Of a stretch of 64,000 nt of DNA, positions 27,960-28,853 are shown in pieces. Location of the stretch: the IMG/VR virus record IMGVR_UViG_3300045996_001458, positions 18,068 to 82,067 of that record, one strand, 5' to 3'. Within the stretch, counting starts at the first letter, position 1, and every line of letters begins with the position of its first letter. Source of the stretch: a virus. The translations under genes and the position numbers were made by a program. The notes beneath the pieces are model-generated. The model was not told the DNA's origin and searched no databases. It saw only the letters and a list, made by a program, of their open reading frames with translations.

Positions 27960-28853
27960 TCATGCGGCACTCGCCCTGTCCGGCCCGGGCGCAGGGACGT
28001 GCACATCGGTGACGCCGTGCAGTCGTCGGGCCTCGATCCACAAGTCCTTCAGCACCGTCTTGGCGATGGCACGCAGAGCGCGACCGTGCTGGTGCGCGGG
28101 CGGCAACGGGGAGCCGACTTCGGCCGGCTTGCCACTGGGTCCGCATTGTTTGCAGGGCACGTTGTGCACCGCGTCGGCGTACTTCGCCCGCGTCTCGTCG
28201 TAAACCGTGCGGTACTTCGAACCGGACGGGGCCTTCACGCACGAGGTGGCGATGAGCCACGCCCGCTTGCGGGCCTCTTGGGACCAGTTCGACTTCTGTC
28301 CGCGCGTCCGCTTGGGCGCGGTTGAATGGCTCCCGCCAGCGTTCACCATCTGGGTTTCGAGCACATAATGGCTGGCGGGAAGTTGGGTCCCAGTGGTGCG
28401 GGCGCCTTGGGTTTCGTCGCACGAATGACCACTGGGAAGTGTGTGGTATCCGCAGTACGCCCAGAGTTCGGACACGGTGCGGGGCCGCTGGTGCAGGGTG
28501 TTCCAGTACGGGTCGCCGATCTCGCCGAGCAGGCGGGCCAACTGCTTCTCGCCGACGCCGGTGGCCTGTTTGATCCACGGACCCCACTGCGAGCGGCGCA
28601 TGTGCGACTGGAGCTGCTTGATCGCCTGGTCCTCCACGGCGGCCAGCGCTTCCAGCGACAGCGCGATGCGCTTCACGTCACGGTGGTCCTCGGGGAGTCC
28701 GAGGCTGCGGCGGATGCCGTCGTCGTCCACCTCGGTTGAGGTGAGCTGACGGAACCGGTTCCCGCTGGCGACGCGCAGGGACTCAAGGTCGTCCACCTGG
28801 GACGCGAGGATCTTCAGGAGCGGGTCGAAGAGCAGACCGTTGGGGTTGTTCAC
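27960..28853 (-). CDS. Nop-domain RNA-binding protein related to the IS110 C-terminal domain, no nuclease domain (TasA-like)
   Basis: Coiled-coil N-terminus; GVGEKQLARLLGEIGD, TVSELWAYCGY, KYRTVYDETRAKY, HGRALRAIAKTVLKDLW; no N-terminal DEDD RuvC; AAGGAG RBS. Confidence 0.85.
   Translation of the reverse strand: MNNPNGLLFDPLLKILASQVDDLESLRVASGNRFRQLTSTEVDDDGIRRSLGLPEDHRDVKRIALSLEALAAVEDQAIKQLQSHMRRSQWGPWIKQATGVGEKQLARLLGEIGDPYWNTLHQRPRTVSELWAYCGYHTLPSGHSCDETQGARTTGTQLPASHYVLETQMVNAGGSHSTAPKRTRGQKSNWSQEARKRAWLIATSCVKAPSGSKYRTVYDETRAKYADAVHNVPCKQCGPSGKPAEVGSPLPPAHQHGRALRAIAKTVLKDLWIEARRLHGVTDVHVPAPGPDRASAA
28331..28440 (-). ncRNA. Two TIGR-like stem-loop guide units embedded in frame in the TasA-like CDS
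   Basis: CCCAGTGG-TCA-TTCGTGCGA-CGAAACCCA-AGGCGCCCG-CA-CCACTGGG and TCCCGCCAG-CCA-TTATGTGCT-CGAAACCCA-GATGGTGAA-CG-CTGGCGGGA; same linker as the upstream array. Confidence 0.85.

Follow-up and report, generated by a model that had tools for sequence, protein, structure and literature searches.

Two stem-loop TIGR units read in frame within the predicted wedge loop of a phage tasA gene

Stem-loop TIGR arrays were described by Faure et al. in Science in 2025 (PMC12045711), who also found that Tas is needed for processing. More recently, Xu et al. (bioRxiv 10.64898/2026.09.09.750476, 11 Sept 2026) reported that such arrays can lie within the tas coding sequence, where they leave the reading frame intact and typically occupy disordered regions. 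In TasA of Bifidobacterium longum (BlTasA), the wedge loop overlaps two tigRNA-coding regions, and the intragenic tigRNAs were recovered, like those of other units, by small-RNA sequencing of the purified RNP (bioRxiv 10.64898/2026.09.09.750476). The same study showed that tigRNAs begin or end at a CUU motif located where the stem starts and that TasA is an RNA-guided transcriptional repressor, and suggested a link between tigRNA maturation and Tas translation (bioRxiv 10.64898/2026.09.09.750476).

The locus presented here lies in a window of 64 kb, i.e., the whole stretch of viral DNA that was analysed, and all coordinates refer to it. For this window, it had been claimed that two guide units are written in frame inside an effector gene and that no description of such an arrangement was known. 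The latter does not hold, as Xu et al. (2026) report in-frame intragenic stem-loop tigRNAs, two of them in the BlTasA wedge. Thus, the arrangement in the window is not new in kind but a further example of the described one, and knowledge of this kind of system is unchanged by the locus. Both BlTasA and the phage protein are nuclease-less TasA proteins with an upstream stem-loop array, two in-frame units in a disordered wedge loop and a CUU motif at the stem base, and both belong to an actinobacterial host or phage. In contrast to BlTasA, for which the intragenic tigRNAs were seen by RNP small-RNA sequencing, the phage locus was studied at the level of its DNA and is likened to BlTasA by description.

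The gene and the part of it that carries the units are located as follows.

27960 to 28853, minus strand: tasA, encoding a 297-aa nuclease-less TIGR-associated Nop-domain protein, with a GTG start

28310 to 28441, minus strand: predicted wedge-loop insertion, codons 138-181 (44 aa), between the motifs LWAYCGY and KRTRGQKSNW

The ribosome-binding site of tasA is AAAGGAG at 28859-28865, 6 nt before the GTG start. In PHROGs, the protein is assigned to phrog_4285, named 'transposase' (E 1.7e-95), and the original prediction had expected the insertion in the variable loop that carries the catalytic Ser in IS110. An identity as an IS110 recombinase was rejected, since the protein has no DEDD/RuvC domain, has the coiled coil at its very N-terminus (with a helix from residue 11 onwards in the AlphaFold2 model, pLDDT 86.4) and does not match the IS110-family profiles PF01548 and PF02371. 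The Pfam search of the protein gave zero matches of any kind, RuvC and HNH included. Among 959 homologues, a single one is named 'TIGR-Tas system RNA-guided endonuclease' by NCBI. Compared with PDB sequences by phmmer, the protein resembles TasH (E 8e-9) and TaTasR (9MTY, E 6e-7), and the ten best Foldseek matches of the model are TasR and TasH structures (E 1e-7 to 5e-6, with 9MTY among the top ones), followed by IS621 and ISCro4. Taken together, the missing nuclease domain and the sequence and fold matches to TasR and TasH identify the protein as TasA; on sequence and modelled fold, the product is a Tas protein with a Nop-type domain, consisting of coiled coil and C-terminal domain.

TaTasR and SpTasH (PDB 9MTY, 9W04) have the same Nop-domain fold (Foldseek E 1e-7) and wedge site and resemble it in the sequence of the C-terminal domain. 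They differ in carrying RuvC or HNH domains, in their short wedge loops and in their 36-nt tigRNAs, which derive from constant edge and loop repeats (dual-repeat TIGR-Tas). The IS110-family protein IS621 (PDB 8WT6/8WT9) has a related coiled-coil and C-terminal (Tnp/Nop-like) fold (Foldseek E 4e-4 to 1e-3) and likewise a structured guide RNA encoded next to its gene. Unlike IS621, the tasA locus possesses neither a DEDD/RuvC domain nor transposon ends and is not an IS110 member, and its guides are numerous and have a single loop each, where IS621 has one bridge RNA with two loops.

Directly after LWAYCGY (residues 130-136), the coding sequence of tasA contains two complete units, F and G, given here with their scores from a covariance model built without the window (rough E-values).

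28388 to 28437, minus strand: in-gene TIGR unit F, 10-bp perfect stem; 35.9 bits, E 5e-6

28398 to 28427, minus strand: loop of unit F, with spacer A at 28417-28425 (TTCGTGCGA), loop repeat at 28408-28416 (CGAAACCCA) and spacer B at 28399-28407 (AGGCGCCCG)

28330 to 28381, minus strand: in-gene TIGR unit G, 11-bp perfect stem; 51.4 bits, E 1.4e-9

28341 to 28370, minus strand: loop of unit G, with spacer A at 28360-28368 (TTATGTGCT), loop repeat at 28351-28359 (CGAAACCCA) and spacer B at 28342-28350 (GATGGTGAA)

Both units follow the layout stem, CA, 9 nt, CGAAACCCA, 9 nt, C, stem, with exactly 30 nt between the arms and CTT at the 5' stem base. Their loops start 57 nt apart, in frame with tasA, and the units encode residues 138-175, with LPSGHSCDETQGARTTGTQ and LPASHYVLETQMVNAGGSH as the peptides translated from F and G, respectively. 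Unit F is predicted to target the 18-bp sequence TTCGTGCGA+CGGGCGCCT, and unit G the 18-bp sequence TTATGTGCT+TTCACCATC. Accordingly, two complete guide-type units are indeed present in frame in the effector gene (28330-28437, minus strand), and the spacers, peptides and 57-nt period reported earlier were all confirmed in the sequence. The linker ACCCAACTT, which was thought to be shared by both units, is found after F, but G is followed by AGCCATTCAAC.

The two units do not stand alone: five further hairpin units (28868-29158, minus strand) lie in the 310-nt gap before tasA.

29105 to 29158, minus strand: TIGR unit A, 12-bp stem; spacers GGATGTACG / AAGGGTTCC; 31.6 bits

29044 to 29095, minus strand: TIGR unit B, one stem mismatch; spacers CGCTCCTGC / TACAGCCTG; 32.6 bits

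28988 to 29035, minus strand: TIGR unit C, 9-bp stem; spacers AAGGCCGTC / AGGTCTTTC; 32.2 bits

28931 to 28980, minus strand: TIGR unit D, 10-bp stem; spacers ACGTGCTTG / TGGCGGGAC; 49.3 bits

28868 to 28924, minus strand: TIGR unit E, 1-nt bulge in the stem; spacers ATGACGATG / GATGACATG; 32.5 bits

Unit E ends at the tas ribosome-binding site. All seven units of the window have stems of 9-12 bp, each of them unique, and a 30-nt loop with CGAAACCCA or a close variant; CTT precedes or overlaps the 5' stem base in five of the seven, F and G among them. Across relatives, a crude check recovered CTT or CTC at this place for about 40% of the units only, which counts against the explanation favoured below, although F and G both have CTT. 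As the protein is TasA, the five upstream hairpins are its stem-loop TIGR array in the sense of PMC12045711. The system described there for PlTasA (Peromyscus gut contig) agrees with the locus in that its hairpins are arranged in tandem, with palindromic stems that vary, two spacers of 8-12 nt, flanks resembling box C/D and a conserved 9-nt loop, and in its nuclease-less Nop-domain partner (PMC12045711). For PlTasA as for BlTasA, the literature shows that the array is transcribed and yields single-unit tigRNAs to which Tas is bound. However, its arrays are described as intergenic, whereas the phage units, two of which are intragenic, have a period of 57-62 nt and the clade-specific loop CGAnnCCCA. 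Origin hairpins or integron attC-like sites had been the first idea for these structures and were dropped once the protein was identified as Tas.

Membership of F and G in the array family was assessed with a covariance model of 94 units from other phages, prophages and metagenome contigs, which form an alignment of 58 columns with no gaps and include no sequence from the window. The whole 64-kb window was searched with filters off; E-values from this search are rough because the calibration was short. Seven matches exceeded 31 bits, all of them at the tasA locus, while the next match reached 19.7 bits; G ranked best and F third. The 125-nt in-gene stretch folds into both hairpins at -48.9 kcal/mol, compared with -34.2 +/- 3.1 kcal/mol for shuffled sequences (z -4.8). 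When a strict unit rule was applied to 105 loci, unit density was 10.2 per kb for the wedge insertion and 5.4 per kb for the upstream 700 nt, as against 0.03 per kb for the core coding DNA of tas and for the antisense strands. A comparison of 101 units showed C15, A16, C32 and C33 to be invariant and the stems to vary yet pair. Counted over these stems, pairing amounts to 98% and all ten pairs covary, which is given little weight since the units were picked as hairpins and the count is partly circular. Rfam, run in evalue mode on 27000-30000, returned no match.

The same nucleotides are also read as codons. In their column profiles, 116 in-gene and 381 upstream units match, and the C-G closing pair as well as CA, CG..CCCA and C are retained in both groups. 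One frame is used by all 116 in-gene units, and this frame is open in 116 of 116, compared with 81% of the upstream units. The spacing of in-gene units (48-69 nt, with values such as 57, 60, 63, 66 and 69) is always a multiple of 3, while upstream units (53-68 nt) follow no such rule. Third-position G+C amounts to 0.64 in the insertion of the window versus 0.89 elsewhere in tasA. The closest relatives (P0002-P0008, 70-77% identical) were compared as proteins; in the three closest with two units, the core is 77-82% identical and the wedge 32-50%. The wedge residues kept in these relatives are LP from CTT-CC, H or Q from the CA box and D/E-T-Q/H from the loop repeat. From unit to unit, and from one sister locus to another, the stems are completely different yet remain paired, as in one sister locus (L093) whose two wedge units have entirely different, perfectly paired stems. 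Judged from these sequences, constraints on RNA and on protein both act on the insertion, with the RNA constraint dominating its sequence. The frame, stem and profile data thus bear out the earlier view that the DNA carries a translated loop together with complete guide-type units. In both spacers (columns 17-25 and 35-43, all loci), positions 3 and 6 have a higher G+C content than the positions next to them, whether the unit is coding or non-coding; translation alone does not explain this 3-nt periodicity in the spacers.

The place of the insertion in the protein was derived from an alignment and from the model. The phmmer alignment puts it between residues 212 and 218 of TaTasR, and the wedge comprises G210-K230 of that protein according to the Methods of bioRxiv 10.64898/2026.09.09.750476. 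Residues 147-173 of the tasA product have a pLDDT below 50 (AlphaFold2) and are predicted to be disordered, with short paired strands on either side. The alignment break inside the wedge and the low pLDDT together indicate that, as far as sequence and model can tell, F and G lengthen the Tas wedge loop by 38 disordered residues.

Loop length was surveyed in the best 120 homologues, 106 of which contain both anchor motifs, LWAYCGY and KRxRGQKSNW. Insertion lengths in these 106 proteins fall into classes of 6-9, 23-30, 40-48, 60-63 and 80-84 aa. Units were counted in 105 non-redundant loci with available DNA, which were anchored on the protein motifs and to which the strict rule was applied independently. 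Insertions of 0-17 aa contain no unit in 43 of 43 cases; mostly one unit is present at 20-32 aa, two at 38-51 aa and three at 55-68 aa, and longer insertions hold up to five. The wedge insertion in relatives hence varies in steps of about 19-20 aa, matching 0-5 units, and of the units that its length would predict, about 85% satisfy the strict structural rule (61 loci). Gordonia phages BENtherdunthat and Spooky carry two units at the same wedge site, and cluster A mycobacteriophages have none in the tas gene and about five upstream. On the core-protein tree of 102 loci, unit number changed at least 33 times, consistent with units having been gained and lost in the wedge loop. The original prediction had proposed, as a check, that the loop of homologues varies by multiples of about 19 aa with its ETQ conserved; run on these proteins, the check agreed, with steps of about 19-20 aa and (D/E)(T/A)(Q/H) kept. 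Its further suggestion of an insertion into a permissive loop was supported as well, the loop being disordered, corresponding to the Tas wedge loop and changing often in unit number.

In the explanation we favour, the locus belongs to a temperate actinobacterial phage and is a TIGR-TasA system of the stem-loop class, placed in the early operon after the antirepressor and comprising seven dual-spacer units, five upstream and two inside tasA. F and G are genuine TIGR units and double as codons, read in one fixed frame, for the 38 disordered residues by which the wedge loop is extended; in complexes of Tas, guide and DNA, it is this loop that separates the two strands of the DNA. As in BlTasA, the tas transcript, or one overlapping it, would be cut near CUU at the stem bases, and F and G would thereby be released as tigRNAs of about 55 nt. 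Loaded with these, TasA dimers would bind both strands of an 18-bp target through the two 9-nt spacers and, again by analogy with BlTasA, block transcription there. Altogether, F and G are probably dual-use units, filling the wedge loop and giving rise to processed tigRNAs which guide TasA to 18-bp DNA sites. The expression, processing and guide use of F and G that we infer would extend to a coupling of guide release to TasA translation: if the two were released solely by cutting tas mRNA, each transcript would give either full-length TasA or the two guides. A putative negative autoregulation by tas mRNA processing, also raised by Xu et al., is plausible. That TasA-promoted processing of its mRNA forms a built-in negative feedback which sets the guide-to-effector ratio, with a quantised and fast-evolving number of wedge units, is a tentative and rather doubtful extension.

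Should the in-gene hairpins act mainly in cis, TasA itself or an RNase recruited by CUU would bind or cut its own mRNA, with guide use secondary or absent, and the effect would be negative feedback or a fixed guide-to-protein ratio. F and G lie in the middle of the mRNA, so that release of either destroys the message; Tas is required for processing (Faure et al., PMC12045711), and the connection of maturation to translation drawn by Xu et al. (bioRxiv 10.64898/2026.09.09.750476) points the same way. Moreover, a sigma-70-type scan, a weak method for actinobacteria, detected no minus-strand promoter-like site in or before tas. Nevertheless, a purely cis-acting element needs neither two intact, unique 9-nt spacer pairs nor the full set of boxes, and the in-gene spacers vary as much as the upstream ones. 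The occurrence of the intragenic BlTasA units in the RNP like the others (bioRxiv 10.64898/2026.09.09.750476) argues in the same direction. A predominant action in cis is accordingly regarded as improbable, and it is compatible with dual use rather than exclusive of it.

Loss of pairing should be seen if F and G were relics of an array swallowed by the gene, under constraint on the peptide only and tolerated as a disordered linker without functional RNA. Their stems are perfect (10 and 11 bp), the conserved nucleotides are all intact and G is the best match of the window; across the 61 loci, the share of about 85% of expected units that pass the strict structural rule persists despite fast divergence of the peptide. 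Even though the loop is disordered and tolerated at lengths from 6 to 103 aa, and the 82-kb contig revealed no target, such a relic origin is considered distinctly improbable. Least credible is the view that the hairpins are incidental, either because the protein merely contains a common repeat of low complexity or because two genes flank an intergenic array. A degenerate 19-aa peptide repeat is visible; selection on a peptide, however, cannot yield inverted repeats that covary, enclose a loop of constantly 30 nt and agree with the non-coding units in their columns. Two separate genes are contradicted by the frame, open in all 116 units with spacing always a multiple of 3, and by the AlphaFold2 model, which joins both halves in one Nop fold.

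With the dual use of F and G as the preferred reading, the locus would represent a clean and complete example from a temperate actinophage in which the same DNA gives guide RNA and a protein loop. The rules of such dual use are one fixed frame, spacing in multiples of 3, 0-5 wedge units and a turnover faster than that of the gene core; of these, the clade-wide counts, i.e., unit number, single frame and spacing, add to the description of BlTasA. If dual use applies, new or replaced spacers in the wedge loop would alter the guide set and the wedge peptide together. Coupling between guide maturation and translation is testable in the culturable Gordonia phages BENtherdunthat and Spooky, for which cluster A mycobacteriophages provide a natural zero-unit control.

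The neighbourhood of the array includes one further conserved gene.

29164 to 29658, minus strand: conserved 164-aa gene, function not assigned (phrog_4604), directly upstream of the array

It is homologous to genes in the same position, namely gp58 of Gordonia phage BENtherdunthat (33% identity, E 6e-21) and gp75 of mycobacteriophage BPBiebs31 (E 6e-13). By sequence comparison, the 164-aa gene, the array and tasA form a conserved module placed after Cro and the antirepressor, and the 164-aa gene may be a candidate accessory factor. An ORF of 98 aa spans the upstream array exactly (28868-29164, minus strand); its ATG and the stop codon of the 164-aa gene overlap as ATGA, and it terminates 14 nt short of the tas start, in a frame other than that of tas. 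For 290 of the 381 upstream units in relatives, an open frame runs through the unit and on into tas, and records of Gordonia phages annotate tas with 424 aa and the array as an N-terminal extension (annotation only). In BENtherdunthat (L001 45-517, record 36378-36850), three more TIGR units are located inside the 3' end of the adjacent gene gp57 and one between gp57 and gp58. Units in coding DNA are thus not limited to tas.

Self-targets were sought by joining spacer A to the reverse complement of spacer B, and in the opposite order, with gaps of 0-2. For the seven guides, the 82-kb contig (the whole assembly) contained no site with up to 2 mismatches and six sites with 3 mismatches, one of them within the array itself, where about 2-3 are expected by chance. 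The complete BENtherdunthat genome gave one 2-mismatch site in non-canonical order, which is not significant with about 0.16 expected over all guides and geometries. Spacers are not shared with 104 other loci: for the six window units that pass the strict rule (F and G included, E left out), the nearest pair differs at 6 or more of 18 positions.

In four soil-metagenome runs, contigs were short and of low depth, and none bridges F and G. One of 212 nt (depth 2.6) matches 28151-28341 with one mismatch and diverges exactly at spacer B of G, where CTATCGACT stands in place of TTCACCATC (28342-28362); loop repeat and subsequent bases resume after this spacer. This single low-depth contig hints at a replacement of spacers between near-identical phages.
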